A stretch of 64,000 nt of DNA from an uncultured Candidatus Saccharibacteria bacterium (GCA_964396685.1 CAYNFS010000001.1:16638-80637); one strand, 5' to 3'. Positions 1,921 to 59,929 are shown, numbered from the stretch's first letter. Translations and numbers: made by a program. The notes: generated from the letters alone by a model not told the origin.

Positions 1921-1948
1921 TTTTTGATTTTTGATTTTTGATTTTTGA
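1921..1948. repeat. heptanucleotide tandem repeat (tttttga)x4 between PilC stop and pilin start
   Basis: Four perfect 7-mer units read directly from the sequence. Lies 9 nt after the pilC stop, in the putative pilin promoter/5' region (or in the N-terminal extension if ATG 1960 is used). Confidence 0.9.
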
Positions 1949-1956
1949 TATTTTTA

Positions 1957-3171
1957 TCATAGGTTCTGTCCGATATTGTAAATCGGCAAAATGAGTCCCA
2001 CGGCCAAGACGCCAACTACGGCGCCGATCAAAATGACCAGGACAGGCTCAATTATGGATGAGAGATTTTTGACGGTGTCGTCAATTTCCGCCTCGTAAAA
2101 ATTGGAAACTTCCGCCAACACCTTTTCCATGGTTCCTGTCTCCTCGCCGACCTGAATCATCTGCGTTACCATCGGGGTGAAAAGTTTGGGATATTTCTCC
2201 AAAACCACCACCAAATCAACCCCGACTTTCACTTTTTCGGAAGCGTCGGCTATGGCTTGCCGGTAGTAAACATTGTTCATGGTGTCGCTGGTAATCTTCA
2301 AAGCCTCGACAATCGGCATGCCGGAACGAAGAAGGCCGCTAAAAATGATAGTAAACCTCGCCAGATTGAGTTTTTTCACGATTTTGCCGATGATCGGCAG
2401 ACTTAGATTGAGCTTATGAAAAAACGCGTGGCCTGATGCGGTTTTGTGCCAAAACCATATCCCGAATACCGACACTGCGATAACCGCCAAAAGGACCAGC
2501 GAATAGCTCGCGAATAAGTCCACAATCCTGATGATGATTTTGGTGAGCACCGGCAATTCGGCATCGAACTCCTGGAATGTTGAGGTTAGCTTCGGCAGAA
2601 CGAAGGAAAACATGATATAGCCGATGATGAGCAACGCAGCCATCACGACTGCCGGATAGGTGAGCGCCCCTTTGGTGCGGCGCAACAAATTGTAATCACG
2701 CCCTATCTGGGTGCCCAGATACTCCAAGGTTTTATCCAGCTCGCCGCTTTGTTCTCCAACCTTGACCATATTGACAAAGATGGCAGAAAAAATATTGGGA
2801 TATTCACCCAGGCTTTCAGACAAAGTTTTGCCGCCTTCCACATTGTGCGCCACCGCGCTGATGACATTCCGAAAATAGGGATTCGGCATTTGTCTCGTCA
2901 GCACAAGCAAAGCTTTGGATACCGGAAGGCCGGCTTTGATGGTTACGGCCAGGTTGTTTATAAAAGTCAGCTTCTCCAGCAATGAAACATGAGAAAAAAT
3001 TACGTTTAAGGCTCGACTTCTCAAGGAGCCCAGTCTTCGTTCCTCAATTGAAGTAGGAAGCAGGCCCTTGCTTCTTAGAGCCTGCCCTACTGCTTCCCGG
3101 GACGGCGCTTCTGCGATGTCCGAGACCATTTTGCCTTCCTGGTCCCGCGCTGTATATATAAATTCAGGCAT
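1957..3171 (-). CDS. pilC: type II secretion / type IV pilus platform protein PilC/GspF family
   Basis: Two T2SSF-like repeats and polytopic membrane segments. Adjacent to a GspE-type ATPase. Stop overlaps ATG 1960 (ATGA). Confidence 0.85.
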   Translation of the reverse strand: MPEFIYTARDQEGKMVSDIAEAPSREAVGQALRSKGLLPTSIEERRLGSLRSRALNVIFSHVSLLEKLTFINNLAVTIKAGLPVSKALLVLTRQMPNPYFRNVISAVAHNVEGGKTLSESLGEYPNIFSAIFVNMVKVGEQSGELDKTLEYLGTQIGRDYNLLRRTKGALTYPAVVMAALLIIGYIMFSFVLPKLTSTFQEFDAELPVLTKIIIRIVDLFASYSLVLLAVIAVSVFGIWFWHKTASGHAFFHKLNLSLPIIGKIVKKLNLARFTIIFSGLLRSGMPIVEALKITSDTMNNVYYRQAIADASEKVKVGVDLVVVLEKYPKLFTPMVTQMIQVGEETGTMEKVLAEVSNFYEAEIDDTVKNLSSIIEPVLVILIGAVVGVLAVGLILPIYNIGQNL

Positions 3172-3172
3172 T

Positions 3173-4915: not shown

Positions 4916-7156
4916 TTATTTTTTGCACTTTGTTTCAAGCTCTTTCAAAAACTCCTGCCCTTCTTGCTGAAAGACAGGATTAAGCCTAATGGTTTCCAAA
5001 ACTTGAATGCGCGCGTTGTCGGTATCGCAAATCTCGCCATAAGCCACCGCAAGTTTGGCGTGAAGCTCGGCATTTTGCGGATCCAACTCTGCGGCTTTTT
5101 GGTAGCTTTCCGCCAATTTGAAATTATCCCCTGCCTCCAAATAGGCTCTGGCCAAATTGGTATAATCTCTGGAAGTAAGCTCGTATCCTAACTCTTTAAG
5201 TTTTGCCAGTTCCTCGGTAGCGATGTCCTCCCGTTTCGCGATAATCCCGGCCAGCAGGTAATTAAAATGCGACTCTTTGGGCTCGGGATTCTGGGCAATC
5301 GCCGATCTAAAGTACTCAAGGCCCTCTTCAAACTGCTTTTTGGAAAAAGCCGCTTGACCCAATTCAAAATAAATTTGGGGCCTCGTGGGAGAAAGCGCCA
5401 AGGCCTTTTGCCCCAAACTTAGCGCCTCGTCAATCATTTGTTGATTGCCCGTAAAGCGGTTTATCACGCTTACGAGATACAAATAATTTTTGACATCTTC
5501 CGGAAAATCTCTGATGCTTTTTCTAAGCTCGTCCATTACATATTGATAGACCTCGCTTTGCTCTTGAGAAGAAAGCTGTCCCGAGAACACAGCTTCGCTG
5601 GCATAATCCACCAGCCTCTGCCGGATTTCTTCATCCATATAAGTCCCGTAAGATAGGGCTTTTTTGAAAGTCGGCAAAACTTCCCGGTACTGCTTGACTT
5701 TTGCGGCCTTGATCCCTTGGGTCGTATAGTAGTTTGCAAAAGCGGGTCTCAAGTTTACGAAGAGAGCCGCAAAAAACATCAAGACGGCTAAGATCGTCGG
5801 CATCACAAAGCCCGGATGATAACCGGTGCGAGCTTTGGCCGGAGAAGATGACAGATATTGATTCGTCAAAAAAGCGATGTTGCCAAAAAGCAAAAATGAA
5901 AGCATGTAAGTTGCTTGTGTGTCAAACACAAAAAGATTCTGCAGGAAATAACCTGCCAGAAGCACGCCCAAAATTAAAATCATTCTAGGTTCCAAGTCCG
6001 GAGGCTTTTGAAGCCAAAGTTTAAATAAAATCCAGAAAGCCGCCGCAAACATGACAAGATACGCCAAAAAACCAATCAAACCGGCTTGTACCAGAACGTC
6101 AAAGACCACGTTGTGGGCGCGGTCAAACCAGATTTGACTGCCCTGATCTTTGAAAATTCGGGCTGGAAAATATTTGTTGAAGGCAATGTGATAATTTTCA
6201 TAGCCCCAGCCGAAAACCGGTCGGTCTTTGAACGCCTGGTAAGAAGCATTCCAGGTGTCCAAGCGCGACTGGGTCGTGATATCCCTTGGCGAAATGGTCG
6301 CAAGCCTGTAAAGCGTGTTGCTTCGGCTCACCCAGGAAGCGTCGCGGTTGAAATACAAAATGAAACCAAACGCCAAAAGCAAAGCCAAAAAGCCAAGCGA
6401 GAGGATTTTGGTCTTGCGTTTTTGGGATTTAAAGACATTGACTAAAAAATATAAACCGAAAGCCAGAGCCGCCGCCAGAATCGCCCCTCGAGTCTCTGTT
6501 TGGTACAGGATGTATAGTTCAAACCAAAACACAAACCAAAGATATACGCGCTGCGTTTTGGATTTTGCCTCCTGCAGGAGGTAGAGGGAAAGAAAAACTC
6601 CAAATAGCATCACTGCCGCAAAAAACGAAGCGTTGCCGATGGTGCCCACGATCCGGCCGCCGCGGAAAATGTTTGAAAGAATTGGCAAATCCAAAAGCTG
6701 GCTTAATCCCACCAAGGCGTTCAAAAAAGTCATGGTAATGGCGGCCAACAAATACCTGTGCCAATCGCGGCGAGTCTGAAATACCGCCGGCAAAATCGTA
6801 AAGTAAGCCGCGAAATGAAGTATGGTAACAAGCCCCTCGCCCCGCTCGATCGTCCCCCAGAAACTGTGGTTGAAATTCACGCCAAAAAGGCTTGCGACAA
6901 AAATTACACCGATATAAATCCATACTGCTTTTGTCAGCCAATTCCACTTAATTCTCAATTCCGGGTACTTTACGGCCAAAACCGCATAAACCACGACGGC
7001 CAGTTCCACCAAAAGCCTGAAATACAAAATTTTCGTGGTAATAAATGGAAACAAAAAAACGCTCCACACCAGAAGCGGCATGACGAGCAAGGCATACAGA
7101 ATTAATCTTAGGAGTTTATACCACTTATTTGTTTCCAGCGCGTCACTGTTTGCCAT
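4916..7156 (-). CDS. O-antigen ligase (Wzy_C) family polytopic membrane protein with C-terminal TPR domain; candidate O-oligosaccharyltransferase/ligase
   Basis: Wzy_C-type segment (ETRGAIL..., FGWGYENY...AHNVVFDVLVQAGLIGFL), more than 10 TM helices, C-terminal TPR repeats. Immediately upstream of pilB. Confidence 0.7.
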   Translation of the reverse strand: MANSDALETNKWYKLLRLILYALLVMPLLVWSVFLFPFITTKILYFRLLVELAVVVYAVLAVKYPELRIKWNWLTKAVWIYIGVIFVASLFGVNFNHSFWGTIERGEGLVTILHFAAYFTILPAVFQTRRDWHRYLLAAITMTFLNALVGLSQLLDLPILSNIFRGGRIVGTIGNASFFAAVMLFGVFLSLYLLQEAKSKTQRVYLWFVFWFELYILYQTETRGAILAAALAFGLYFLVNVFKSQKRKTKILSLGFLALLLAFGFILYFNRDASWVSRSNTLYRLATISPRDITTQSRLDTWNASYQAFKDRPVFGWGYENYHIAFNKYFPARIFKDQGSQIWFDRAHNVVFDVLVQAGLIGFLAYLVMFAAAFWILFKLWLQKPPDLEPRMILILGVLLAGYFLQNLFVFDTQATYMLSFLLFGNIAFLTNQYLSSSPAKARTGYHPGFVMPTILAVLMFFAALFVNLRPAFANYYTTQGIKAAKVKQYREVLPTFKKALSYGTYMDEEIRQRLVDYASEAVFSGQLSSQEQSEVYQYVMDELRKSIRDFPEDVKNYLYLVSVINRFTGNQQMIDEALSLGQKALALSPTRPQIYFELGQAAFSKKQFEEGLEYFRSAIAQNPEPKESHFNYLLAGIIAKREDIATEELAKLKELGYELTSRDYTNLARAYLEAGDNFKLAESYQKAAELDPQNAELHAKLAVAYGEICDTDNARIQVLETIRLNPVFQQEGQEFLKELETKCKK

Positions 7157-7197
7157 GATTTAATTTTACTAAATTTTCCCCAATCGGTCAATGCGCT

Positions 7198-20482: not shown

Positions 20483-21282
20483 TGCAAGCTTTTATAAATT
20501 TTTAGCACCTCGTCATGGATCTTGCTGTTACTCATCAAAACTCCATCCCGATGATAAAGATCCTCTGTGTTATAGACAAACTCCCGTCCCCAAAGATCAG
20601 TAATCCTGCCACCCGCCTCGGAAATCAAGCAATGAGCCGCGGCCGTATCCCACTGTTTCATCTTGTCTGTGGTCGCCAAATACAATTCTACTGTTCCAGC
20701 CGCCACCAACCCAGCCTTTAGTCCGGCGCTGCCCTGCGAAACGTATTCCCGAACGTTCAATTCGCGGGCCAGGCGCTTGTCTAATTCGGACAAATGATGC
20801 CGGCTCACAACTGCCTTTGCCTGCGAAAGCTGATCCACCAAGCTTACCCAAAGTTTTTGCCATTCACCGTTCTGGTTAAGATAAGCTCCCTCCCCTTTTT
20901 GTGCCGCATAATATCGGCCCGTGGCTGGCTGATATATGACCCCCAAAACCGGAGTACCTGCCTCAACCAAGGCGATCATCACACTAAACTCGCCGGTTTT
21001 GCCTATGAAATCCATGGTGCCGTCCAAAGGATCAACAATCCAAATCCGCTGTGCTTGCACTCTCGCGAGATCATCTTCCTGTTCCTCGGAAAGGATTGGT
21101 AGACCGGAGGAACGCAAAAATTTACTTATCGTATCCTGACTAGCACGGTCAGCAACAGTAACCTCCTCGCGATCCTGTTTGAATTCGGTCTCGAATTCAT
21201 AATGGTAAATGGCCATGATCTTGCTCCCGGCCGCTCTGGCGGCATCAATCGCCAACTTGGTTTCGTTCCAAAAATTCATCAT
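20479..21282 (-). CDS. inositol monophosphatase family protein, CysQ-like 3'(2'),5'-bisphosphate nucleotidase
   Basis: IMPase signature WIVDPLDGT and second metal-binding motif. Immediately downstream of the PAPS-synthase fusion. Confidence 0.75.
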   Translation of the reverse strand: MMNFWNETKLAIDAARAAGSKIMAIYHYEFETEFKQDREEVTVADRASQDTISKFLRSSGLPILSEEQEDDLARVQAQRIWIVDPLDGTMDFIGKTGEFSVMIALVEAGTPVLGVIYQPATGRYYAAQKGEGAYLNQNGEWQKLWVSLVDQLSQAKAVVSRHHLSELDKRLARELNVREYVSQGSAGLKAGLVAAGTVELYLATTDKMKQWDTAAAHCLISEAGGRITDLWGREFVYNTEDLYHRDGVLMSNSKIHDEVLKIYKSLH

Positions 21283-24035
21283 ATCAGCCCCTCGCTTTTA
21301 AGAAATTCCCAAACCTTCTGAACGCTTTGCTCAATGCTTTCACGGTTCGTGCTGATTGTGACATCCGGGTTTTGCGGGATCTCATAAGGATTTGATTCTG
21401 AAAAGCCGATAAGGTTTTTGAGTTGGCCGGCTTTTGCCTGCTGGTACAAACCCTTAGTATCGCGCTTCATGCATTCCTCCAAGGGGCAGTCGGCATACAC
21501 CAGAAAAAAGCTGCCCCCTACTATTTCGCGAACCATCTGCCGATCCGCCTCATATGGCGAAATAACCGGCACGAGCACAAAATCATGCTTTTCTCTTTCC
21601 TCCCGGGCCAGCCGGGCAATCAACTCGTTGTTTTTACGGATGTCCTCGCGGGAAAAACCCAAATTTTTGTGCAAAATCGCCCTGATTTCATCGCCATCCA
21701 GCATTTTCACTTGGTGCCCGAAACGCGAAAGTTCTTGTTTTAATCCTTCAGCCACAGCGGTTTTACCCGAACCGGAAAGTCCCGTAAACCAAAGCACGTG
21801 CCCGGCCGGGGCGGCGCTTGGATGTTTGACAAAAACTTCTTCGCCCCGTTTGATCGCTTCAACTATCATTTGGGAAATTTCCGGGCGCATAAACCATTCG
21901 GGTGGGGCCTCCCCCTTTTCAAACGTTTTTCTGGCTTCGGTGCCGCTGATATGAAGCTTGTCCTCTTCTGAATGCTCGATGCTGTCCATCTCATGGACAT
22001 GGGACTGCATTTTTTTGGAATAAAAAACCTGGTCAAACCGAATGGGAACAATGCCCAAATCAGGAAACTTGTCAAAAATCTCGTGGCTGGCCTTGGGGTG
22101 ATAAAAATCACCGACTCCGGTATGGTCGCGCCCCACGACGAAATGGCTGCAGCCGAAATTTTGCCGGCAAATGGCAGTAAACAGCGCCTCGCGCGGCCCA
22201 GCGTATCGAGAATAAGTAGCAAAAGTTCCCAGCACCACGCTGTCTTTGGGATAAAATTTTTGCATCATCATTTCATAAGCGCCGATGATGTATTTGGCGT
22301 GAAAATCCCCGGCCTTTTTCTTGCCGACGACCGGATGCACAAAAAGTCCGTCAGCGGAAGCTTGATCCATCGCCGCGAGCTGAATAAATTCGTGGGAGCG
22401 ATGAATGACGTTTCGGGTATGAAATCCAACGACCCTCTGCCAGCCGCGCTCGGAAAAAAGCCGTCTTGCTTGCCGCGGCGTCAACTCATACTCCTTGGCT
22501 TCGGAAGGCCGGCGGCGGATGAGATCAATTTTTCCGCCTAGAAACCAAGGCTCAAGCTGTTTGACATGCCGAACTCCCGGATGCTCCTCGTTTTGCGTGC
22601 CATACAGCTTTTGCGCCATTTCGTCCAAATCAAAGCGATACTTATCCTCGACATGTAAAAGAGCCGCCGGCTGATCCGACTCGTCAACGAGAACCACCAC
22701 ATCGCCGACATTAAGGGTGTTGGATTTTTCCTCGGAAACATTCAAAGTGATCGGCAGAGGCCAGATGACGCCGTTTGGCAGACGCATGGAATCCAAAACA
22801 CTGGCCAGTTCCTGGCGGCTCATAAATCCTTCTAAGGGACTGAAAGTGCCAATGGCAATTTGCTCCAAATCCATGTGAATTTCCTGGGATATGGAAATGC
22901 TCGCAAGTTTTCTAAAATCAATGCTCGGCATTTCCACTAATACGCGGTTGACCAATTTTCCTCCGTGGGGCGGCACCAATCCGCTGCTTCGATGCTGGAG
23001 CATAGAAGACGCTTTGGGAAAAGTGCCGGGATTGAGCATGGCTTCGGCCTCGGAAATGAGTTTTAGCATCATGTTCACGCTTTTGATCGGATATTTTCCG
23101 ATCGCGGTTTCCGCGGACAGCACTACGCCATAGGCTCCATCCAAAATAGTGCTCACCACATCATTGGCCTCGGCTCTCGTGGGACGCTTATTTTTTACCA
23201 TCGATTCCAAAAAGTTAGTGGCCACAAAAACCCCTTTGCCGAATTTCTTGGCCTGCCCTATGACGTGCTTTTGCAAAAAGGGAAGCTTTTCAATTGGCGC
23301 CTCTTTGCTCAAATCGCCCCGGTCCAAAAGCAGATAATCAGACGCTTTTATGATCCCCTCAAGGTTGTTCAGGGCGTCCGCGCATTCGATCTTGGAAATT
23401 ATTTTCATTTTCCCCATGCATGCCCTTCGTACTTCTTCCACAAAAGAAGCGGAACGCATGAAAGAAGCGGCAATCATATCTATTCCCTGGCTTAAACCGA
23501 GCTTGATGGATTCATAATCTTTGGATGTGAGAGCGGGCAAATCAAACTTCTTGGGAAATCCGGGATCCACAACAACGGCTTTGTTGCGGCCAACAATCCC
23601 GGCGCTTATCGCACGCGCTCTAATAAATCCTTGGGGCACAGTGGAAATATCAGTAACTCGCAAAATGGCCGTGTCAAAATCCACGTGCAACAGATCCCCT
23701 TTCAGGAGCTGGGAGAGAATGTAAGCGGGTTTCAAGGCGATTGTTCCGGGCCCGCCGATTTTGGGATAAGCACAAATTTTTACTTCTTCGTTTTCATCAA
23801 GATAAATCTGCTCATCAGAAAGTTCTCCGGTTCTGATTTGCGATCCCTCGGTGTCAAGAATAAACGGGATGCCGACTTTTTTTGCAAGGGCGATGAAATA
23901 TTCCAAATCGGCAATCGTGGAGTGGGACATGTTGATCCGCACGAAATCAACCCCGCGCGTTTTAATCATGCGCAAATCGGCTTCGCTTCTAGTCGCGGGT
24001 CCTAGAGTGACTATTAATTTTACTTGTTTATCCAT
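21279..24035 (-). CDS. tri-domain fusion: pyruvate-kinase-like barrel (N) + sulfate adenylyltransferase/ATP sulfurylase (middle) + adenylylsulfate (APS) kinase (C), i.e. a PAPS synthase with an N-terminal PK-like domain
   Basis: PK core motifs (LDTEGSQIRTG, DRGDLSKE, TNFLESM, PTRAEANDV, VLSAETA). Sat motifs (PPHGG, GFHTRNVIHRSHEFIQ, VHPVVGKKKAGD, GRDHTGVG). CysC P-loop WFTGLSGSGKTAVA. A single 918-aa ORF with no internal stop. Confidence 0.85.
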   Translation of the reverse strand: MDKQVKLIVTLGPATRSEADLRMIKTRGVDFVRINMSHSTIADLEYFIALAKKVGIPFILDTEGSQIRTGELSDEQIYLDENEEVKICAYPKIGGPGTIALKPAYILSQLLKGDLLHVDFDTAILRVTDISTVPQGFIRARAISAGIVGRNKAVVVDPGFPKKFDLPALTSKDYESIKLGLSQGIDMIAASFMRSASFVEEVRRACMGKMKIISKIECADALNNLEGIIKASDYLLLDRGDLSKEAPIEKLPFLQKHVIGQAKKFGKGVFVATNFLESMVKNKRPTRAEANDVVSTILDGAYGVVLSAETAIGKYPIKSVNMMLKLISEAEAMLNPGTFPKASSMLQHRSSGLVPPHGGKLVNRVLVEMPSIDFRKLASISISQEIHMDLEQIAIGTFSPLEGFMSRQELASVLDSMRLPNGVIWPLPITLNVSEEKSNTLNVGDVVVLVDESDQPAALLHVEDKYRFDLDEMAQKLYGTQNEEHPGVRHVKQLEPWFLGGKIDLIRRRPSEAKEYELTPRQARRLFSERGWQRVVGFHTRNVIHRSHEFIQLAAMDQASADGLFVHPVVGKKKAGDFHAKYIIGAYEMMMQKFYPKDSVVLGTFATYSRYAGPREALFTAICRQNFGCSHFVVGRDHTGVGDFYHPKASHEIFDKFPDLGIVPIRFDQVFYSKKMQSHVHEMDSIEHSEEDKLHISGTEARKTFEKGEAPPEWFMRPEISQMIVEAIKRGEEVFVKHPSAAPAGHVLWFTGLSGSGKTAVAEGLKQELSRFGHQVKMLDGDEIRAILHKNLGFSREDIRKNNELIARLAREEREKHDFVLVPVISPYEADRQMVREIVGGSFFLVYADCPLEECMKRDTKGLYQQAKAGQLKNLIGFSESNPYEIPQNPDVTISTNRESIEQSVQKVWEFLKSEGLI

Positions 24036-31491: not shown

Positions 31492-32274
31492 TTAGACCGA
31501 GGATTTAGTGATAAAGTCGTTAGCAAGCGATTTGAGGAGACCCTCATTCCTGGTAATACTCAAATTCTTAACCGCTACCTTCATATTTTTAGTCAAAAGC
31601 GAAATATGATGAAGGTAGCCATCGGTAATTCGACTGTTGGTAATTAAAAATTTTGCCACCTCGAAATCTTCCTTTTCATCCACCGTGAACCGAAAATGCC
31701 TAAAATCGGCAGGCGCTTTGAGGTTTCCTTTTTTGTACTTTTGGCGTTTGCGTATATACAAAGTTACGTGTTCGCGTTCCGAAAAAAGTTTGGCAAAACG
31801 GTCTGCCTCAAGCAAGGCTTTTCTCGTAAAAACCTCTACATCCAGACCGTCGGGGAAAGTTTCTTCGAGAATATTGGCCGCATAATCGTAACGTTTTAGG
31901 CGGTATAACTTAATCACTTCATAGATAACCTCTGGATCAATCAAAGGGCAATCGCCAGTGACTCGCACGATATTACGGTACTGAGAATATCGCCGGGCGC
32001 ACTCCGCATAACGGTTTAACACATCTTGTTCGGAACCTCGAAAGCACGCAACTCTTAACTTGTTACACAACCTGACTACTTTTATATCCTCTTTATTTGT
32101 TGTTGTTGCAACCACGATCTTGTCAATCCCGTCAGCCAGTTGCACCCTTCTAATCTCGTATGCAAGAAGTGGAATCCCTTTAACTTTAAGCAAAACTTTT
32201 CCGGGCAGCCGGGTTGATCCCAAACGAGCTTGGATGATGCACAGGGTTTTCCCTCTCATTTTCGTTGCACGCAA
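31492..32274 (-). CDS. CMP-sugar cytidylyltransferase (acylneuraminate cytidylyltransferase / SpsF-PseF-like)
   Basis: LCIIQARLGSTRLPGKVL motif. Confidence 0.8.
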   Translation of the reverse strand: MRATKMRGKTLCIIQARLGSTRLPGKVLLKVKGIPLLAYEIRRVQLADGIDKIVVATTTNKEDIKVVRLCNKLRVACFRGSEQDVLNRYAECARRYSQYRNIVRVTGDCPLIDPEVIYEVIKLYRLKRYDYAANILEETFPDGLDVEVFTRKALLEADRFAKLFSEREHVTLYIRKRQKYKKGNLKAPADFRHFRFTVDEKEDFEVAKFLITNSRITDGYLHHISLLTKNMKVAVKNLSITRNEGLLKSLANDFITKSSV

Positions 32275-33215
32275 TATTTTAAGACTTGACTGGCAATCGA
32301 CAGATTGTTGAACGTCTGCTCTCGTCGGCTAACACACTGAAAAAAATATTTTATCTCATCAATGTAAGTCTGGTTAAATACAAAGCCTTTCGGATGCAGC
32401 AGCTTTTTTGTCCGGTTTTTTGACTTAAGCCAGACGACATTTTCGTGAAAATCCCACTCTAAATTCCCCTTTTCCCCCACAACCTTACAGTTTCTGGAGT
32501 AATGCTGCTGCAGATAGTCAGAATGAATGGAAGCAAAAATATCATTTTGAAATCGAAAAATAGCCAGGCTTAAATCCTCAGTTTCAATTTCTAAGTTGCT
32601 GACCCGCTCATAGAAAAATTTAGACTGGCGTACGGGACTGAAATTGTTTAACCAAAAAGCTAAATCAAATTCGTGGATATCGTCCAAAATAATTCCGCCA
32701 CCGGTGTCCCGTCGGGCCGCGAAATTTTTCCTATAATCAGTTTCCGGCCGCCAAAAAGGCAGATAATAACCGAATTCCAAATAAATGCTGTATATTTTAC
32801 CCAACTCCTTATTCGCCAGATAGTTTTTGATGAACCGCAGACAAGGATGAAAACGTAGGTTACATCCGACCATGGTGATTAATTTTTTCCTCTGGCAAAT
32901 CTTGTTTAACATCGCCACTCCAAGCAAATTGTGGGAGAGTGGCTTTTCAATAAAAAGGTGACAACCGGCCTTTGCCGCAAGCATCGCCTGCTTAATATGC
33001 AGATGGTTCGGCGAACAAATGAATGCGACATCAAATTTTTCTAAAGTTCCCATTCCTAAATTTTGAATTTTGAATTTTGAATTTTGAATTTTGCGCGAGT
33101 TAGAATCATAAACATAAACCTGTTCGTAACCCAAGGCGAGCAAGTTCTTATAGTGCCTCTTCCCAATTGACCCAACCCCAATTATTAAAATTTTAGGATT
33201 GAATTGTTTCGGCAT
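32256..33215 (-). CDS. Gfo/Idh/MocA family oxidoreductase carrying an in-frame heptanucleotide repeat
   Basis: Rossmann motif ILIIGVGSIGKRHYKNL. ORF track start 33401 is unlikely (it overlaps the upstream stop); Met at 33215 is used. Confidence 0.75.
   Translation of the reverse strand: MPKQFNPKILIIGVGSIGKRHYKNLLALGYEQVYVYDSNSRKIQNSKFKIQNLGMGTLEKFDVAFICSPNHLHIKQAMLAAKAGCHLFIEKPLSHNLLGVAMLNKICQRKKLITMVGCNLRFHPCLRFIKNYLANKELGKIYSIYLEFGYYLPFWRPETDYRKNFAARRDTGGGIILDDIHEFDLAFWLNNFSPVRQSKFFYERVSNLEIETEDLSLAIFRFQNDIFASIHSDYLQQHYSRNCKVVGEKGNLEWDFHENVVWLKSKNRTKKLLHPKGFVFNQTYIDEIKYFFQCVSRREQTFNNLSIASQVLKYCVQRK
33059..33093. repeat. heptanucleotide tandem repeat (aattttg)x5 inside the oxidoreductase CDS (encodes KIQNSKFKIQN)
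   Basis: Five perfect 7-mer units read directly from the sequence. Confidence 0.9.
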
Positions 33216-45979: not shown

Positions 45980-47205
45980 AACCCTTTGATTTTAACTGAT
46001 TGAATAATATCCGCAAGCTCATCAATTAACACTTCATAAGTATAATTTTGGAGCACGCGCTGCCGTCCCGCCTGCCCCAAACGATGGCGTAACGCCTCAT
46101 CCGACAAAAGTTTTACTGCCGCTTGCGCCAGCGTTTTGGCATCGGCCGGGGGCACGACCAAGCCGGTTTGGTTGTGCAAATTTATTTCCGGACCCCCACC
46201 CAAGCTGGTCGTGATTACTGGCAAGCCTGCGGCCATGGCTTCAATCGTGACCTGGCCGAAATGCTCAACCCAAGTGGAGGGGACAATCAAAGCGTCTACG
46301 GCATTCAGGTACTCCGGAAGTTTTTCAAACGGCTTAAGCCCCACAAGTTGCACGTGTTCACGAATGCCCAATTTTTCAATAAGCGCCTTCATTCTCTCAC
46401 TCTCTCCTCCGCCGCCAATAATAACCAGGTTGACGTCCGGAAATTTTGCGATAATGTCCGGCATGGCCTGAAGAAGATAACCAATGCCTTTTTCCGCAAA
46501 ATTTATTCGGCCGATGAAAAGCAAAACTTGCTCGCCACGAATACCCAATTGTTTCTTCCACAATAATTTATCATCGCGCGGGGCAAAAAGATCCGCCTCA
46601 ATGCCAACTGACCAGACTGCGACTTTCTTTGCCACAACACCCAGAGGCCTTTCGGCTTCGGCCGCGGCACGACTCACAAATAATATTTTGGCGGCCTTTT
46701 CATAAATTGTCTTCGCAAACCGACGCTGATTTTTGCGATCCAAAACCCATTCCAAAAAAGGGATTTTGGCAGCGGGACGAGAAAGATGCCATTGCCAAGC
46801 CGTGATTTGTCGAAACATAAACGGAGCGCGCAGCCGGTCACAAATCTTGGCCACCGCAAAACCAGTCTCCCTAGCTTGCCAAACGAGAATCGCGTCATAC
46901 TTCACCGCTCTGTCCAATTTTAACACTGTCTTTCTGGTAGCCCAGAAATACCAAAGCCGCAGCGGTCGGGAAAGAAAAAACAATTTACGGCTATTCCAAA
47001 GCGGGGGGTAGTATCGACAAACCTTCACTCCGCCGACATCTATGCTGCCCTTCTTGAAAAAAGACAGCCACGGCGCCGCCACCAGAACTTCGTGTCCCGA
47101 AGCCGCAAGCCTGCGCATCATTTCTATAAAGTAATGATAGGTGCCCAAGTGTCGCCCCAGCTCTTCCTCCGTTCCAAATTTGTAAGCGACAACGAGAAGC
47201 TTCAT
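45976..47205 (-). CDS. glycosyltransferase family 4
   Basis: EHFGQVTIEAMAAGLPVITT. Confidence 0.85.
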   Translation of the reverse strand: MKLLVVAYKFGTEEELGRHLGTYHYFIEMMRRLAASGHEVLVAAPWLSFFKKGSIDVGGVKVCRYYPPLWNSRKLFFLSRPLRLWYFWATRKTVLKLDRAVKYDAILVWQARETGFAVAKICDRLRAPFMFRQITAWQWHLSRPAAKIPFLEWVLDRKNQRRFAKTIYEKAAKILFVSRAAAEAERPLGVVAKKVAVWSVGIEADLFAPRDDKLLWKKQLGIRGEQVLLFIGRINFAEKGIGYLLQAMPDIIAKFPDVNLVIIGGGGESERMKALIEKLGIREHVQLVGLKPFEKLPEYLNAVDALIVPSTWVEHFGQVTIEAMAAGLPVITTSLGGGPEINLHNQTGLVVPPADAKTLAQAAVKLLSDEALRHRLGQAGRQRVLQNYTYEVLIDELADIIQSVKIKGL

Positions 47206-48293
47206 AGACTAAATTCCTCAATGATTTTTTTCACCAGATTATTCAAATCATGTTCTCTGGCCACCCAGTCTCGCAATTTCTTTGCGAGTGTATGTTTTTC
47301 AGATACCGGAAGATTTTTCATTTGGACTATTCTCACGGCCAGTTCTTCCGGCCTGTCTCTTTGAAAAAAAAGAAGCGAAGATATTTCCCCGAGTGGTTTG
47401 GCAAACGCTTCATTCGAGGTCAAAACCGGAATCCCGCAGGCCGCCGCTTCCAGCACCGTTTTGTCAATACTGCCGGTCTGGCTTAAATTCACAAATAAAT
47501 CCGCTTCCTGATACGCTTCATCAGCATACTCATAGTTCAGCTCGCCTTGGAATTTGACGATCCCCTCCAGATCAGCATTATGAATAAATTCAATCAGAGA
47601 ATCTAGATAGCTCTGATGCTCCGGCAGGCCGATTTTGCCGTAAATTTCAACCACAAAATCCTTAATTTGTTTCTCGTAATATAAAATTTGCGCGGCTTTA
47701 ACGAGAGTTTCATAATCCTTCACAGGCGAAATCCGGCCAATACTTAGTATTTGGAATTTGACCCCCTCTCTTTCTCCCCCTGTCCGCTTGAGGCGGATAG
47801 GGGGAGATGAAGTGGGGGTAAATTTTTCTATATCAATCCCGTGCCCCACCACTTTCACTTTCTTTGACGGCATTCTGAAACTCTCTTTTGACGCCGTAAA
47901 AACCGTATCAACCAAAGCATGAGCGATTTTTAATTTCCAATCTACTGCCTTGTGCGTGTACCATAAAATTATTTTTTTGCCGAAAATTTTGGCTGGCAGC
48001 CAAGCGATGATCGCGTAAAAAGGATGCATGTGCACAAAAAAGCCGTCAGTTTTTTGGGCTAACCTAAAAGCTATAAGCCATAAGCTACAAGCTTGTCTTA
48101 TTTTCCCATACCCCTTCTCTTTGCCGAAAGAATAAACCTCGATATTCGAAGCCAAACCAGAAGTGTCGCCTTTTTCTTGGCAGATGACATAGAGTTTTTC
48201 CAACCTTGCCGCGAGATTGTTAAGCCAGCCAAACACAAACCCCGTTAGCGAATCTCCTCTATCAACTTTTCTGGTTATAAAAACTAACCCCAT
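47202..48293 (-). CDS. glycosyltransferase family 4 (contains in-frame palindromic element A1)
   Basis: TVLEAAACGIPVLTS. Element at 47762-47818 encodes PTSSPPIRLKRTGGEREGV before the conserved ILSIGRISPVKD. Confidence 0.85.
   Translation of the reverse strand: MGLVFITRKVDRGDSLTGFVFGWLNNLAARLEKLYVICQEKGDTSGLASNIEVYSFGKEKGYGKIRQACSLWLIAFRLAQKTDGFFVHMHPFYAIIAWLPAKIFGKKIILWYTHKAVDWKLKIAHALVDTVFTASKESFRMPSKKVKVVGHGIDIEKFTPTSSPPIRLKRTGGEREGVKFQILSIGRISPVKDYETLVKAAQILYYEKQIKDFVVEIYGKIGLPEHQSYLDSLIEFIHNADLEGIVKFQGELNYEYADEAYQEADLFVNLSQTGSIDKTVLEAAACGIPVLTSNEAFAKPLGEISSLLFFQRDRPEELAVRIVQMKNLPVSEKHTLAKKLRDWVAREHDLNNLVKKIIEEFSL
47762..47818. repeat. palindromic element family A, copy A1 (ccccctctctttctccccc-N19-gggggagatgaagtggggg)
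   Basis: Imperfect inverted C5/G5-bounded arms. 57 nt, in frame in a GT4 gene. Confidence 0.8.
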
Positions 48294-50860: not shown

Positions 50861-51990
50861 TTTTGCAGTATCTTAATTGTTCTTTCTATCATATTTTTCT
50901 TTGAGAGATTTACCTTAAATTTCTCAAACGCGCTTCTGGCACTGCTCGCAAGCTTTTGCCGTAAGGCAGGATCACTGTAAACTTGCAAAATAGCCTTTTT
51001 CAGCTGCTCTTTATTATTATACTCGATCAAAATCCCGCTTACTTTGTCCTCGACAAGCTCCGCGTTCCCGCCAATGCGAGTCGCAATGACGGGCAACCCA
51101 GCTGACATCGCCTCCAAAATCGTGTGCGACAACCCTTCGTAACCGGTATTGAGCACAAAAAGATCAGACGAGCCGAATTTTTTATACAATTCAGCACGGG
51201 GCAGATCATGATAAATCTCAAGCCTGATATCCGGATAGATTTGTTGCAGCTCTCCTACCGCCTTCCTCAATAATTCAAAGCCTTTCCAAGGAACATCGCG
51301 CCCGGCAGAAACAATCAGAAATTCTGACCCCCTCTCTTTCTCCCCCTTAACAAGGGGGAGATGAAGAGGGGGTATCGCGTTGTAAATTACTTCAACGTGG
51401 CTTTCTTTGACCCCCCAGCCCATAACCAAATTTTTCAAGTACAATGAGGGCACAACGACTTTGCAGGCCGCCTTGCAAACGCGAATCTGGATGTCGCGCA
51501 TCTTGGCAATTTTTTTGGGATAGCGGGGCAATTTCTGAAATTCGTCAATCAATTTATCAGTCAAGCCACGGCCCATGGCCTGCTCCCAGGAATAATCCCC
51601 GGTAATTTTCACGACATAGGGTTTTTTGAGCACGCGAGCGGCCAGAGAGGTCGGGTAGCCGGCCGAGACGGGATCTTGGGCGTAAAATATGTCAAAACCC
51701 CTGCCGAATTTTTTTACAGCGCGGAAATATTTATAGTAATGCCAGGGCTTGAACCAGGAGCGTGTGACGCGTGTTACTAAATAATCGTCATTGCGAGGAG
51801 TCTGCGACGAAGCAACCCCTGTGAGATTGCCGCGCTCCCTGCGGTCGCTCGCAATGACACTAGAATTTCCATAGGTAATCACCCTCACCTCATGCCCTAA
51901 TTTCTTTAACCCCCATGCGAGGAATTCACTATACGTCGCCGGCCCTCCTATCTCGGGCGGGAAAATCCCAGTACAAATTAAGATTCTCAT
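50848..51990 (-). CDS. glycosyltransferase family 4 (contains in-frame palindromic elements A2 and B1)
   Basis: EGLSHTILEAMSAGLPVIAT. Insert peptides PPLHLPLVKGEKERGSE and VIASDRRERGNLTGVASSQTPRNDD. Confidence 0.85.
   Translation of the reverse strand: MRILICTGIFPPEIGGPATYSEFLAWGLKKLGHEVRVITYGNSSVIASDRRERGNLTGVASSQTPRNDDYLVTRVTRSWFKPWHYYKYFRAVKKFGRGFDIFYAQDPVSAGYPTSLAARVLKKPYVVKITGDYSWEQAMGRGLTDKLIDEFQKLPRYPKKIAKMRDIQIRVCKAACKVVVPSLYLKNLVMGWGVKESHVEVIYNAIPPLHLPLVKGEKERGSEFLIVSAGRDVPWKGFELLRKAVGELQQIYPDIRLEIYHDLPRAELYKKFGSSDLFVLNTGYEGLSHTILEAMSAGLPVIATRIGGNAELVEDKVSGILIEYNNKEQLKKAILQVYSDPALRQKLASSARSAFEKFKVNLSKKNMIERTIKILQKCVS
51328..51372. repeat. palindromic element family A, copy A2 (short 7-nt spacer)
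   Basis: Identical left arm. 45 nt, in frame. Confidence 0.8.
51787..51858. repeat. palindromic element family B, copy B1 (gtcattgcga...tcgcaatgac termini)
   Basis: 10-bp perfect inverted termini plus inner cgacgaagcaa arm. 72 nt, in frame. Confidence 0.8.
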
Positions 51991-53858: not shown

Positions 53859-53864
53859 CGTGCC

Positions 53865-54092: not shown

Positions 54093-54132
54093 AGTCAGCT
54101 TCCAAATTTCCGGGGAGACGCAACGTTTCCCC
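54083..54132 (+). terminator. two consecutive hairpins (gctgac-ctaaa-gtcagc; ggggagacg-caa-cgtttcccc) after the small ORF, possible terminator
   Basis: Stems read directly from the sequence. No clean U-tract. Confidence 0.3.
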
Positions 54133-54208: not shown

Positions 54209-54295
54209 ACGGCATATCTGAAAAAATAAGCCACGTAGCAGGCTGGTTTTTGGCAAATTGCCGATTTTTCTTTTATTTGTTATGCTTACGCCACC

Positions 54296-54586: not shown

Positions 54587-54923
54587 AAGAGGGATAAGAC
54601 TCTACCTTGAAGATATCCAGAATTCTATTCGAAAAATAGAGAAGTATACACGTGGCTCTAATTTTGATAAATTTTCCAAAGATGAAAAATTGATTGACGC
54701 AGTCGTCAGGAATCTCTCTGTTATCGGCGAAGCGGTCAGGAGTATTCCCCGGCATATGAAGGCCAAAAATCCAGACATGGCTTGGAAAGAAGTCAAAGGC
54801 ATGAGAAACAAGGTTGTTCATGAGTATTTTGGCATTGATGAAGAAATCTTGTGGAAGACTATTCAAGAAGATCTGCCAGTTTTCAAAAAGCAAATCGCCA
54901 GACTATTAAGCGATATTAAATAA
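54579..54923 (+). CDS. hepT: HepT-like HEPN toxin (DUF86)
   Basis: Rx4-6H HEPN motif RNKVVHEY. Overlaps the MNT gene stop. Confidence 0.8.
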   Translation: MSKRGIRLYLEDIQNSIRKIEKYTRGSNFDKFSKDEKLIDAVVRNLSVIGEAVRSIPRHMKAKNPDMAWKEVKGMRNKVVHEYFGIDEEILWKTIQEDLPVFKKQIARLLSDIK

Positions 54924-54957
54924 AAGAAAAATCGGCAACTTCAGATACACTTGAACG

Positions 54958-56187
54958 TTATGCTTTAACCAATCGCTCGAGAAGCGTTCCCATTTTTTGA
55001 GCGATAATCTCCCAGTCGTATTTTTCTTCCACGAGTTTTCGGCCGTTCTGGCCGAGCTTTTCCCGCAACTGCCCGTCTTCCAGGAGCAGTTTTATTTTTT
55101 CGGCTAAATCTTTGGGGTCATCGGCTTTGACGAACAAGCCGTTAGGATTTGACCCACTCTCACTCTCCCCCTCCGCCCCGTTGGCGAGGAGGAGAAAAGG
55201 AGAAAGAAACTCCGGAATTCCCCCGACCGGAGTGCCAATCACCGGCAATCCCGCGGCCATGGCTTCCAGAAACGAGCTTCCCAAGCCCTCGGAGCGCGAA
55301 GGGCGGACAAAAATGTCGGCTTGGCTTAAGTAATCGGGGATCTTCTCCGACTCGACATTTCCGACAAATTCTACCATGTCTTCCACGTTTAAATCTTTTG
55401 CAAGCTGTTTAAGTTTAACTTCTTCAGGCCCGCTTCCCACAATCAACAACTTGACGTCATTGCGAGGAGTCTGCGACGAAGCAATCTCATGATTTTGGGA
55501 TTGCTTCCTCCTCGACAAGCTCGGGGTCGCAATGACAGCCATTGCGTGAATCAAAATATCAATCCCGTTCTTCGGCACCAGCCGGGAGGTTGTGATTATT
55601 TTAATAATTCTGCCCCCTCTCAATCTCCCCCGTGATAAGGGGGAGAAAACAGAGAAGGTGACTCCATTCGGCACAACTTCAATCGGACGAGTCGCTCCTT
55701 CCGCTTTTGCCCAATCGGCAAGATATTGGCTGATTGCCTGAATGCAGTCCGCTCGCCTGAAAATTTTCTGCCACTGCTTCTTAAAGCCTCTGACCCTGCG
55801 ATGAATGTGGACAATCTCGTCTCCTTCCTGCAATGTCAGCAAAAACTTTACTTGAGGAAACCTGCGCAGATACATCAAAGCCGCGGCTCCCGCGTAAGCC
55901 GCCATAACCCCCCAGACAATTTGATATGGACGCTCCTGATGAAATTTTTTAGCAAGCCTAAATGCCAAAACCGGATACAAATACCTCCCCAAGCGACTGC
56001 CGAATCCTACGCGATAGACATTGACGTTGCCTATCCGCTCGAAAGATTTGTGCTTGCGGCTGAAACGGCAGGTGACCAAATCAAAATCAAAGGACGGCAA
56101 ACGATCGGTAATGTTCCTGACCGCGAGTTCTGCGCCTCCGATCAAGGGCTCGTAAGCAATGCTGAAAATCAAGATACGGGGTTTCAT
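54958..56187 (-). CDS. glycosyltransferase family 4 (contains in-frame palindromic elements B2 and A3, plus a possible degenerate third copy)
   Basis: SFLEAMAAGLPVIGT. Insert peptides VIATPSLSRRKQSQNHEIASSQTPRND and FSPLSRGRLRGGR. Confidence 0.85.
   Translation of the reverse strand: MKPRILIFSIAYEPLIGGAELAVRNITDRLPSFDFDLVTCRFSRKHKSFERIGNVNVYRVGFGSRLGRYLYPVLAFRLAKKFHQERPYQIVWGVMAAYAGAAALMYLRRFPQVKFLLTLQEGDEIVHIHRRVRGFKKQWQKIFRRADCIQAISQYLADWAKAEGATRPIEVVPNGVTFSVFSPLSRGRLRGGRIIKIITTSRLVPKNGIDILIHAMAVIATPSLSRRKQSQNHEIASSQTPRNDVKLLIVGSGPEEVKLKQLAKDLNVEDMVEFVGNVESEKIPDYLSQADIFVRPSRSEGLGSSFLEAMAAGLPVIGTPVGGIPEFLSPFLLLANGAEGESESGSNPNGLFVKADDPKDLAEKIKLLLEDGQLREKLGQNGRKLVEEKYDWEIIAQKMGTLLERLVKA
55456..55536. 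repeat. palindromic element family B, copy B2
   Basis: gtcattgcgaggagtctgcgacgaagcaatc...gattgcttcctcctcg...gtcgcaatgac. Confidence 0.8.
55613..55658. repeat. palindromic element family A, copy A3 (divergent arms)
   Basis: ccccctctcaatctccccc-gtgataa-gggggagaaaacagagaagg. Confidence 0.65.
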
Positions 56188-57883: not shown

Positions 57884-58712
57884 ACTTTCCTTGGTTTAGG
57901 CGAAGATTCACTTCTTTAGCTTTTTCAAACAAAGACATATCCACGCCCAGTGCTTTCCCTTCGGCAATCACACTTTTGATGTCCTTTGGGAAACATTTCC
58001 CGCCATAGCCACGGTATGCTTCATGACGATTTTGATTAAGGCTTGCCTCGGTATGCCAGATTTCCCAATGGCTTTCTCCCACGCGCTTGTCGGCCACCAC
58101 CGCCTCTTTGACCAGTTCATAATCAATTCCTAGAGCTTGGCAAATGTCATAAATTTGATTTGCAAAAATCACGCGCAGGGCCAAAAAAGTGTTAGACGCG
58201 TATTTAATCATCTCCGCAACGGTGGCTGGGACAATTTTCCGGTAAGGCGCTTCCGGCAAAATTTCCAAAAGTTCAGAAATCAAAGGATTATCTTTGGTTT
58301 TGCTTGTAAACCCCGCGATTTGTCTGTCGTTTTTGAGAAAATCATCGTTCGCGGTTTTGTCGCGTAAAAATTCCGGGTTGAAAGCAAAGTTAATCAAGGG
58401 ATATTTTTGCTGATACTTTTCAGTGGTTCCCGGAAGCGCCGTTGATTTGATCACGACTAACTGATTGGCCGAATCAACAAGATGAGTTACCACGTTCTCG
58501 ACCGCCTCGTCCAAAATAGACAAATCAAAACCGCCATTGTATGGGGTAGGTACGCAAATAAAAATAAACCGAGCTTGGGCTACTTCCTCGATTGGGTCAG
58601 AATCTTTATATTTGTCGTAAACCTTGGCGGAGTTAAAAAAATTTTTAACCGCGCTCCCGACTACCCCGCCGCCGATGATTCCAACTAAATGTCCACTCAT
58701 GTTATAATCCAT
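57873..58712 (-). CDS. short UDP-glucose/GDP-mannose dehydrogenase-family protein, tandem paralog
   Basis: VGIIGGGVVG, ICVPTP, VVIKSTALPGTT, NPEFLRDKTA, GGKCFPKD. Confidence 0.6.
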   Translation of the reverse strand: MDYNMSGHLVGIIGGGVVGSAVKNFFNSAKVYDKYKDSDPIEEVAQARFIFICVPTPYNGGFDLSILDEAVENVVTHLVDSANQLVVIKSTALPGTTEKYQQKYPLINFAFNPEFLRDKTANDDFLKNDRQIAGFTSKTKDNPLISELLEILPEAPYRKIVPATVAEMIKYASNTFLALRVIFANQIYDICQALGIDYELVKEAVVADKRVGESHWEIWHTEASLNQNRHEAYRGYGGKCFPKDIKSVIAEGKALGVDMSLFEKAKEVNLRLNQGKYDQ

Positions 58713-58726
58713 TATGTCTTAAAAAT

Positions 58727-59929
58727 ATGGAAAAGTCAATCTGTTTTGTGGTAACCCAGGGAGAATTAGGCGGCGCCCAGCGCTACGTTTTTGATCTGGC
58801 TGCAAGTCTTGCGGGCTCTTATCGAGTTTTGGTCGTGGTCGGAGCCGAAAAGTCAGAATTGCAGCAAAAACTGCAAGAAGCAAACGTTGAAGTGAAAATG
58901 GCTAACAATCTTGTGCGAAAAATTCATCCGATCAAAGACCTTCGCGCAATTTTTGAATTAAGAAAGGTTTTTCGGGAAATAAAGCCGGATATCGTGCATC
59001 TAAACAGCAGCAAGGCGGGAGTTATGGGAAGCATTTCGGCCAGGCTTGCCGGTATCAAAAATGTGATTTTTACGGCGCACGGATTTGCCTTTTTGGAGCC
59101 GCATTCCTGGATAATCAGACAAATTTATTTTTGGGCCGAAAAAATTGCCAGTCTTTTTCGCCGCAAAATCATCTGCGTTTCGGAGTTTGACCGGCAGGAA
59201 GCGATCAAATGGGGCCTTTGCCAGCCGGAAAAACTGGTAACTATTCATAACGGGATTGAACCCTTCAACGTCATTGCGACCCCGAGCTTGGCGAGGGGGA
59301 AGCAATCTCATGAGATCGCCACGGGCTTACGTCCTCGCGATGACAGAAATACGGTAATTGGAACGATAGCCAACCTCTACAAAACCAAAGGCTTGGAATA
59401 TCTGATAGAGGCCGCCCATATACTAAATACTAAATACCAAATACTAAATACTAAATTTCTCGTCATTGGCGAAGGGCAGGAAAGAGGGAATCTGGAATCA
59501 CAAATCAGGAATAATGGTTTACAAGACAAATTCATTTTGCTTGGGGCAAAACCGGATGCCGCGCAATATCTGCCGCAATTTGACATTTTTGTTTTGCCGT
59601 CAATCAAAGAAGGTTTCCCTTATACCATTCTGGAAGCAATGAGTGCGGGGTTGCCAATCGTGGCAACGGCGGTGGGAGGTATTCCGGAAATGCTAACCCC
59701 CTCTCTTTCTCCCCCTATTTCGCAGAGCGAAACAGGGGGAGATGAAGTGGGGGTTCTCGTTCCTCCCAAAGACCCGCAAGCGCAGGCAGAAGCAATCCGG
59801 TTTCTGGTCAACAATCCCGGAATAGCAAAAAAACTCGGACAAAATGCCCAAGCCAAAGTCAAAGAATTCACCGCAGAAAAGATGATAAACAAAACGATCG
59901 GAATTTATGAGTCATTGCGAGGAGTGTAA
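58727..59929 (+). CDS. glycosyltransferase family 4 (contains in-frame elements B3 and A4 and an in-frame (atactaa)5 repeat; element B4 overlaps its stop)
   Basis: FPYTILEAMSAGLPIVATAVGGIPE. TATAAT-like hexamer at 58704-58709 about 18 nt upstream of the ATG. Confidence 0.85.
   Translation: MEKSICFVVTQGELGGAQRYVFDLAASLAGSYRVLVVVGAEKSELQQKLQEANVEVKMANNLVRKIHPIKDLRAIFELRKVFREIKPDIVHLNSSKAGVMGSISARLAGIKNVIFTAHGFAFLEPHSWIIRQIYFWAEKIASLFRRKIICVSEFDRQEAIKWGLCQPEKLVTIHNGIEPFNVIATPSLARGKQSHEIATGLRPRDDRNTVIGTIANLYKTKGLEYLIEAAHILNTKYQILNTKFLVIGEGQERGNLESQIRNNGLQDKFILLGAKPDAAQYLPQFDIFVLPSIKEGFPYTILEAMSAGLPIVATAVGGIPEMLTPSLSPPISQSETGGDEVGVLVPPKDPQAQAEAIRFLVNNPGIAKKLGQNAQAKVKEFTAEKMINKTIGIYESLRGV
59270..59344. 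repeat. palindromic element family B, copy B3 (variant termini gtcattgcga...tcgcgatgac)
   Basis: 75 nt, in frame. Encodes VIATPSLARGKQSHEIATGLRPRDD. Confidence 0.7.
59420..59454. repeat. heptanucleotide tandem repeat (atactaa)x5, with one ataccaa variant, inside the GT4 CDS (encodes ILNTKYQILNTKF)
   Basis: Read directly from the sequence. Confidence 0.9.
59697..59753. repeat. palindromic element family A, copy A4
   Basis: Arms identical to A1. The spacer is itself palindromic (tttcgcagagcgaaa). Confidence 0.8.

Follow-up and report, generated by a model that had tools for sequence, protein, structure and literature searches.

The question raised by this locus, a 64-kb stretch of DNA from an uncultured Candidatus Saccharibacteria bacterium (hereafter the window, from whose first letter its coordinates are counted), is whether the heptanucleotide tandem arrays found in its pilus and surface-glycan genes may work as genetic switches. 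Nearly all Patescibacteria remain uncultured and little is known of how they are regulated, and their type IV pili and surface glycans are thought to mediate host-cell attachment and phage exposure. In the reading preferred here, which is held with moderate confidence, array 1, in a prepilin gene, and array 2, in an oxidoreductase gene of a nonulosonate cluster, would most likely be low-rate reversible frameshift switches of the contingency-locus type, one for a pilin and the other for a glycan-modification enzyme. This slippage-switch reading is supported in part, above all for these two arrays.

Tandem Repeats Finder (TRF) called four heptamer arrays in the window, with four different units (two of them differing at one base), every one of which is coding. 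Array 1 (1920-1953, minus strand) is given by TRF as ATTTTTG x4.9 with 96% matches, corresponding to CAAAAAT x4.9 on the coding strand, and its longest exact run of 30 nt amounts to 4.3 perfect units. Array 2 (33059-33093, minus strand) is a perfect AATTTTG x5.0 of 35 nt, or CAAAATT x5.0 on the coding strand. Array 3 (59420-59456, plus strand) is ATACTAA x5.3 with a variant third unit, ATACCAA (C at 59438), and two exact 18-nt runs flank the variant position. Array 4 (48060-48093, minus strand; TAAGCTA x4.9, 77% matches) is degenerate and lies inside a glycosyltransferase coding sequence. Both the sequence and TRF agree with an earlier note on this DNA, which had placed heptamer arrays at the first three of these sites; its description of array 3 as five exact units has to be corrected, as the third unit reads ATACCAA. 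The genes that it had assigned are likewise recovered by Pfam, with T2SSF/PilC, Gfo/Idh/MocA and GT4 proteins, and with NeuB, cytidylyltransferase and DegT around array 2.

Beyond these heptamers, an exact-repeat census of the window (units of 1-12 nt, at least three copies) found nothing except two trinucleotide runs of 12-13 nt. When the window was simulated 200 times with a second-order Markov model, exact period-7 runs reached at most 19 nt, the longest run per simulation averaging 15 nt, as compared with the observed runs of 30 and 35 nt, which indicates that the heptamer observation is real and not due to chance; period 7 alone among the repeat classes of the window exceeds what chance would give. 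Each of the four arrays reads in frame within an intact open reading frame (ORF), and since a unit of 7 nt is no multiple of three, any single-unit indel shifts the reading frame, as had been anticipated in the same note for the coding copies. Accordingly, simulated changes of one or two units truncated the prepilin to 19-45 aa, the oxidoreductase to 50-63 aa, the GT4 enzyme to 237 aa and the second glycosyltransferase to 71-78 aa. The affected genes have surface functions according to Pfam, namely a prepilin, an oxidoreductase of the nonulosonate pathway and glycosyltransferases. In their anatomy, frame logic and gene function, the window arrays correspond to what characterizes contingency loci based on simple sequence repeats.

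Natural alleles come from the array-2 site. The Gfo/Idh/MocA oxidoreductase gene (319 aa; 32256-33215, minus strand; Pfam) is surrounded by genes for NeuB, a cytidylyltransferase and DegT (Pfam), in a nonulosonate cluster, and its product matches a single identical NCBI protein (P0001, 100%), the next relatives being about 62% identical and coming from Patescibacteria. Array 2 codes for residues K42-N52 (KIQNSKFKIQN), a segment that in an AlphaFold model (mean predicted local distance difference test score, pLDDT, of 84) is mostly coil between strands 33-36 and 63-66, where it joins the second strand of the nicotinamide adenine dinucleotide (NAD)-binding domain to the third. In related loci (L numbers), the same site carries arrays of other units: the window unit CAAAATT recurs in L082 (there AAAATTC, in another register), and AAGAATT is found in L010 and L022, AAAGTCA in L007, AATCTCA in L004, AAATTAC in L011, L083 and L085, and an ACACGAA type in L084 and L086. 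Dozens more oxidoreductase homologues show 7-residue-periodic peptides at this position, such as RIKNYELRIKN, KIKNQKSKIKN or KTQKHKNTKT. A neighbour-joining tree of more than 100 oxidoreductase homologues, built with the array segment masked, gave no clear unit-type clades readable in its leaf order. In many other Patescibacteria, orthologous heptamer arrays with different units occupy identical codons in three gene families (prepilin, oxidoreductase and GT4). The copies within one array are nearly identical, whereas between orthologous arrays several of the seven positions differ; this greater resemblance within than between arrays is concerted evolution and implies a continuing gain and loss of units.

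Unit number itself varies at the array-2 site, an observation made by proxy in orthologues of two other species. Three Kuenenbacteria loci with 99.3-100% identical array flanks carry two units (L083; ON, 311 aa, intact), five units (L011/P0241; ON, 318 aa, intact) and four units (L085; OFF, with a stop after 49 aa and the gene called as two ORFs). In the second species, L086 has five units and an ON product of 319 aa, and L084 has one unit fewer (four), with a 7-nt gap and no mismatches in 377 nt, and a stop after 47 aa. Only near-perfect arrays varied, and degenerate arrays, those of the oxidoreductase included, were constant on many contigs. The contig names of L083 and L085 (k141, MEGAHIT-style) suggest a final k-mer longer than the arrays, which makes their collapse by the assembler unlikely.

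Several minor observations concern the same site. In three independent assemblies, L011 (9875-9991), L081 (2994-2995) and L015 (at its start), the oxidoreductase array coincides with a scaffold gap or contig end or is adjacent to one, and two database proteins annotated as partial (P0242 and P0261) begin at the array; such contig breaks are consistent with population heterogeneity. P0113/L081 was considered as an OFF allele and rejected, since it proved to be an NN scaffold gap that lacks the array region and not a clean frameshift. The oxidoreductase gene is immediately followed by an octanucleotide array (ATAACTTT/ACAACTTT x8.1) in L011 (10834-10898) and L083 (6503-6567), and this array is identical in these two Kuenenbacteria strains, which differ at the heptamer array.

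Array 1 lies in the prepilin/pseudopilin ORF (1424-1960, minus strand; ORF list and three-frame translation), whose ATG at 1958-1960 overlaps the stop codon of pilC (ATGA), the gene of the T2SSF platform protein located directly upstream (1957-3171, minus strand; Pfam PF00482, E 3.8e-58). From this ATG the prepilin frame remains open through array 1, which codes for K-I-S-K-I-K-N-Q-K-S-K-I within the leader peptide, and into G/FTLIEV (the slash marks the prepilin cleavage site). The frame reads MIKISKIKNQKSKILLG/FT..., followed by a 114-nt in-frame insertion (1791-1913, minus strand) and then by G/FTLIEVIIALALL, the mature pilin N-terminus, so that the order is array-1 leader, first G/FT, insertion and mature N-terminus. 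A 9-nt direct repeat, GGGGTTTAC (1913-1905 and 1799-1791), delimits the insertion, which carries the inverted arms ACCCCGTCACC / GGTGACGGGGT (pattern search, 0.05 matches expected; DNA fold), and contains a second possible prepilin start, MTQC..., at ATG 1838-1840. A different palindromic insertion (arms CCCCGTTAGAAATT / AATTTCTAACGGGG) is found at the same prepilin codons in L091 (4050-4140), and the G/FT codons look like an insertion hot spot. Among close relatives (PilC 65-71% identical), the leaders are either of three residues (MKG/F or MRG/F, with ATGA coupling) or array-expanded, as in L093 (MKTEYRISNIESRFEIRNSKFG/F) and L095 (MKKFQISNFKFQKFHSG/F), and the more distant pilus loci L103, L138, L154 and L159 likewise have leader-coding arrays.

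As to the mechanism, slipped-strand mispairing during replication would create the arrays and keep their units homogeneous, at spots that apparently tolerate a filler peptide rich in Lys, Asn, Ile and Gln. The gain or loss of one or two units would produce a frameshift and a truncated product (OFF), and a change of three units would keep the ON state. Arrays 1 and 2, being uninterrupted, would switch at a modest rate given their approximately five units, array 3 should slip less, because a T-to-C rescue change halves its perfect tract, and array 4 would be a fossil. In the window organism itself, switching would then proceed at such a rate, and it would be of adaptive value rather than merely tolerated.

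A number of observations weigh against this reading. The tracts of the window have only about five units, whereas proven heptanucleotide switches are usually far longer (3-53 units in neuO, 13-38 in hmw); orthologous arrays of five units did vary at the array-2 site. No second sequence of the window organism was found, and hence no variants at the window arrays themselves: an exact look-up of the window GT4 and oxidoreductase (P0001) proteins matched no contig in the encoding-contig collection, and a metagenome scan with the array-2 flanks and a variable gap gave 0 matches. The comparison of repeat numbers across relatives, which the earlier note had proposed as a check, gave a mixed outcome, since numbers differ at the array-2 site in the two species described above, whereas look-ups of cluster members revealed no copy-number variants in the GT4 clusters and three of the five arrays comparable between near-identical strains were invariant. 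The OFF alleles are known from assembled consensus contigs and not from reads, and the ON state is strongly dominant, with the 5-unit Kuenenbacteria protein encoded on 26 contigs and the 4-unit allele on one. In the prepilin gene, moreover, the internal ATG of the 114-nt insertion could let the protein bypass the array-1 switch.

Further difficulties come from how widespread these repeats are. A TRF survey of 1.29 Mb of related Patescibacteria loci, all of them centred on surface genes, detected 75 arrays of period 7 with at least 3.5 copies, against 14 of period 6, 25 of period 8 and 10 of period 9, a dominance of heptamers that leaves a surface-gene bias unproven. In most prokaryotic genomes, too, heptanucleotides outnumber the other long simple repeats, as Mrazek 2007 is reported in PMC4679880 and PMC4692102, where the explanation offered is slippage related to the approximately 7 nt that interact with the polymerase. 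Given this general dominance, three heptamers in one surface locus are by themselves no evidence of selection for a switch; the previous argument that such a coincidence is unlikely to arise by chance holds against random sequence and fails against the composition of related loci. The length of the arrays is oddly uniform as well. Exact period-7 runs are bimodal, with a background that falls off between 14 and 20 nt and another mode at 28-38 nt, none being longer, and the modal TRF array has 31-32 nt, i.e., 4.4-4.6 copies, with few arrays above 40 nt, as opposed to the broad spectra of classical contingency tracts. Frame selection, under which in-frame states are 21 nt apart, explains part of this narrow range, but not all of it, and the same range is seen in arrays seemingly just outside coding sequence. 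A rule of three units added to a single copy (1.4 to 4.4 to 7.4) is suggested for the 31-32 nt mode and fits many arrays, but not Kuenenbacteria, whose ON states at the array-2 site have 2.4 and 5.4 copies.

The alternative that survives best takes the arrays for a neutral by-product of heptamer-biased slippage, surviving where an in-frame filler is harmless (leaders, surface loops, untranslated regions), with the frameshifted alleles as ordinary loss-of-function in dispensable accessory genes and no evolved switch. This explanation, which we consider rather unlikely, draws on the dominance of heptamers in all the sampled Patescibacteria loci, on their abundance and the polymerase-slippage explanation as relayed in PMC4679880 and PMC4692102, on the predominance of ON alleles, and on the tolerance of the same genes for other in-frame junk such as palindromic insertions. 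It also agrees with the presence of similar arrays in housekeeping genes, a further point against evolved switches and one that the earlier note had named as part of a possible refutation: arrays occur in LigA and in a Mur-ligase protein (L089/L090; Pfam). Pfam places other arrays in a prepilin peptidase (L147) and beside the start codons of the PilB and PilT genes (L143, L164 and L166). LigA is normally essential, and in L141 (14601-14630) a degenerate TTGAAAA-type array x4.3 codes for LKIENLKLKI in the adenylation domain of this NAD-dependent DNA ligase. Outside Patescibacteria, in-frame arrays of CGTTCAC (or its complement) with about 4-5 units were found in Desulfobacterota (L062, 5886-6727; L064, 7071-9440 and 14342-14375), mostly inside DegT aminotransferase genes whose proteins are lengthened to 463-493 aa, and a CAATCCG array, also in frame and of about 4-5 units, was found in Bipolaricaulota (L040, 13805-13842), which extends in-frame heptamers in glycan genes to other phyla.

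Neutral arrays, on the other hand, should decay by point mutation, and many of those described here are still perfect while occupying the same codons in orthologues that are about 45-63% identical. The perfect arrays were found in accessory surface genes, the one in LigA being degenerate, and a single species has both ON (two and five units) and OFF (four units) alleles. A location at the 5' end of a gene, familiar from contingency genes, is shared by many arrays as well; about one third of the arrays within ORFs fall in the first 7% of the frame.

A very improbable alternative for array 1 is that of an intergenic promoter or 5' untranslated element, whose unit number would tune pilin transcription through promoter spacing, as in hmw. 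This option, raised in the earlier note, could invoke the location of the array after the pilC stop, the internal start at ATG 1838-1840, which would place the array about 80 nt upstream, a distant relative (L113) whose array contains stops in every frame and is located some 20 nt ahead of the pilin ATG, and the precedent of hmw1A/hmw2A (PMC2651432, PMC8262952). However, a promoter scan found no sigma-70-like site across array 1 on the gene strand, the ORF is open and in frame from ATG 1958-1960 to G/FTLIEV, and the array lies directly within leader codons in six relatives. The ATGA overlap with the pilC stop is also present in relatives without an array, such as L087 and L088, which have an identical coupling and the leaders MRG/F and MKG/F, and the comparable insertion of L091 lacks an internal Met, which argues that read-through of a long leader is tolerated. 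The promoter-spacing option is thus abandoned for a prediction in which array 1 is not part of a promoter and codes for the prepilin leader of a gene translationally coupled to pilC.

Highly unlikely too is that the arrays are cis-acting elements needing a size of about 31-35 nt, for example as targets of an oligomeric protein that binds RNA or DNA, or as translation enhancers rich in A/U. A length requirement of this kind would suit the narrow distribution around 31-32 nt, including arrays outside long ORFs, and many arrays adjoin the start codons of pilus genes; a regulatory role has been proposed for the TAACTGA repeats of Beggiatoaceae (PMC4679880). But no sequence-specific binder fits units as wholly different as AAAGTCA, AAAACAC, AAATTAC, GGAACTG, GCTTATC and others, arrays 2 and 3 are deep within enzyme-coding sequence, and frame selection can also yield a uniform length. 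A Sm-site-like AAUUUUUG on the antisense strand was rejected as a specific binding site, since the units differ entirely among orthologous arrays. Finally, selection on a Lys-rich peptide of 7-residue periodicity, with the DNA periodicity as a mere consequence, is barely credible, since no peptide requires exact unit identity that includes third codon positions, one homologue clade has an unrelated PSDxAFxGF... segment, some segments are much shorter (13-17 aa) and the prepilin leaders of close relatives have three residues, even if homologues without clear DNA arrays keep K/I/N-rich segments of similar length at the oxidoreductase site and prepilin leaders are normally basic.

The preferred reading, that of frameshift switches generated by slippage, finds its closest functional analogue in neuO, the O-acetyltransferase of Escherichia coli K1 carried by the CUS-3 prophage, which has (AAGACTC)n in its 5' coding region with 3-53 units, is ON when the unit number is divisible by 3, has been measured to switch, and is OFF in about 66% of complete genomes (PMC13001214). 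Both systems share a translated heptanucleotide, an enzyme that modifies a nonulosonic acid (sialic acid) of the surface, a full-length product in only one unit class modulo 3, and the coexistence in nature of ON and OFF genomes (PMC13001214), here seen at the orthologous array-2 site. The window arrays differ in having about five units, in their mid-domain or leader position and in being mostly ON. Another heptanucleotide in a coding sequence is that of pglE in Neisseria, a glycosyltransferase for the glycosylation of pilin, acting on type IV pili and surface proteins and subject to frameshift ON/OFF control (PMC7157529). In this case, however, the organism is a host-adapted pathogen in which switching was demonstrated during carriage, whereas the present one is an uncultured member of the Patescibacteria whose GT4 tract is broken by a rescue substitution. 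The gene classes with arrays match these classical heptanucleotide phase-variable genes, neuO (PMC13001214) and pglE (PMC7157529); the mechanism, the unit size and the gene classes are already known.

Other systems offer more partial likenesses. The hmw1A/hmw2A genes of Haemophilus influenzae also have a 7-bp unit at a surface gene of adhesin type, and one strain has (AATTTTG)14, the unit of array 2, inside the hmw1A ORF with a frameshift (PMC2651432); their usual repeats, of 13-38 units, are in the promoter/5' untranslated region and grade transcription (PMC2651432, PMC8262952, PMC12721329). Array 1, in contrast, is in leader codons. The position of array 1 recalls the opa genes of Neisseria, with CTCTT repeats in the region coding for the signal peptide: in both cases the repeat is in a cleaved N-terminal leader and the mature protein is unaffected by an in-frame repeat number, whereas opa repeats are pentanucleotides with many more units, in a multigene family and in a Sec signal peptide instead of a prepilin leader. 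Lastly, the dispersed heptamer families of free-living bacteria, of the class described by Mrazek 2007, such as the cyanobacterial STRR, the TAACTGA of Beggiatoaceae or the GGGAATC of Xanthomonas and Nostoc, are characterized, as reported in PMC4679880 and PMC4692102, by 7-nt units of typically 2-6 copies, often beside start codons and now and then read in frame within an ORF. Compared with other unit sizes, heptamers are in excess both in these families, according to the same reports, and in the window and Patescibacteria loci. In the dispersed families, however, a single unit is scattered genome-wide and mostly intergenic, whereas the arrays in the 64 kb examined have their own units, are coding and hold conserved codon positions.

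Less expected is that deep orthologues in three gene families carry arrays at identical codons, with ON states that are quantised. These features raise the possibility, proposed tentatively and as less than probable, of a lineage-wide and persistent heptanucleotide phasome in Patescibacteria (also known as the candidate phyla radiation, CPR), with same-codon arrays in pilus and glycan genes across orders, ON states in three-unit steps and turnover by concerted evolution; its sites in pilus genes would be prepilin leaders and the starts of pilB, pilT and pilC. A full-text literature search, made in a limited collection that gives no proof of absence, found no description of phase variation, contingency loci or simple repeats in Patescibacteria/CPR. 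If it exists, the phasome would be the first phase-variation system described in CPR and would let these tiny episymbionts vary their pili and surface glycans stochastically, in the service of attachment to hosts or of escape from phages. Should the arrays switch at random, surface variation in Patescibacteria would share the bet-hedging logic of Neisseria, Haemophilus and E. coli K1. In addition, the coincidence of arrays with contig breaks and split gene calls affects the annotation of CPR genomes and the inference of their pathways.

The remaining arrays are in glycosyltransferase genes. Array 3 belongs to a GT4 coding sequence of 400 aa (58727-59929, plus strand; Pfam), with two further in-frame insertions of small repeats at 59270-59310 and 59692-59755. 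The array codes for ILNTKYQILNTKF, which occupies a loop leading from a helix (LEYLIEAAHIL) to a strand (FLVIGEG) where the C-terminal Rossmann domain begins. Codon 238 has the C at 59438 as its first base and reads CAA (Gln), in place of the TAA that the repeat unit would yield. As a perfect (ATACTAA)n tract has a stop in each frame within three units, this apparent mismatch keeps the GT4 gene open, and in simulations any change in unit number puts TAA in frame at codon 238. The same site carries ATACGAA/ATACGAG x4.4 in L167, which is syntenic, and a perfect AAATACA x5.0 in L168, and many GT4 homologues show periodic peptides there. About 30 nt past array 3, at 59487-59507, LESQIRNNGLQ is coded by the heptamer-like GGAATCA CAAATCA GGAATAA; its counterpart in L167 (4997-5023) is a clearer array, ATCACGA x3.9, and many homologues read RIKNYEL there, so this may be a second, decayed array site of the GT4 gene. 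Array 4, in a Glycos_transf_1 (GT1-family) coding sequence (47202-48293, minus strand; Pfam and translation), is probably a decayed array.

Other small repeats populate the same genes. A palindromic family of about 50-60 nt (CCCCCTCTCTTTCTCCCCCT...AGGGGGAGATGAAGTGGGGGT) is found at 47757-47820, 51323-51374, 55608-55658 and 59692-59755, in frame in four different glycosyltransferase ORFs and giving peptides such as SPPI..TGGEREGV. A second family, of the GTCATTGCGAG...GCGACGAAGCAATC type, is located at 51786-51815, 55455-55536 and 59270-59310, where it is read in frame within three glycosyltransferase ORFs. The GT4 copy forms the interdomain-linker peptide ARGKQSHEIATGLRPRDD, at a position where homologues have other insertions or heptamer arrays. 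On the 8.8-kb Patescibacteria contig L168 (1-8864), six to eight heptamer arrays of 4.3-5.0 units are present in glycosyltransferase genes, one unit being found in both orientations (TTGTATT at 30-64 and AAATACA at 5045-5079). In the middle of the glycan cluster of the window, a gene at 21279-24035 (minus strand) codes for a 918-aa fusion of a pyruvate-kinase barrel, a PUA-like domain, an ATP sulfurylase and an adenosine 5'-phosphosulfate (APS) kinase, which suggests a supply of 3'-phosphoadenosine 5'-phosphosulfate (PAPS) for the sulfation of glycans.

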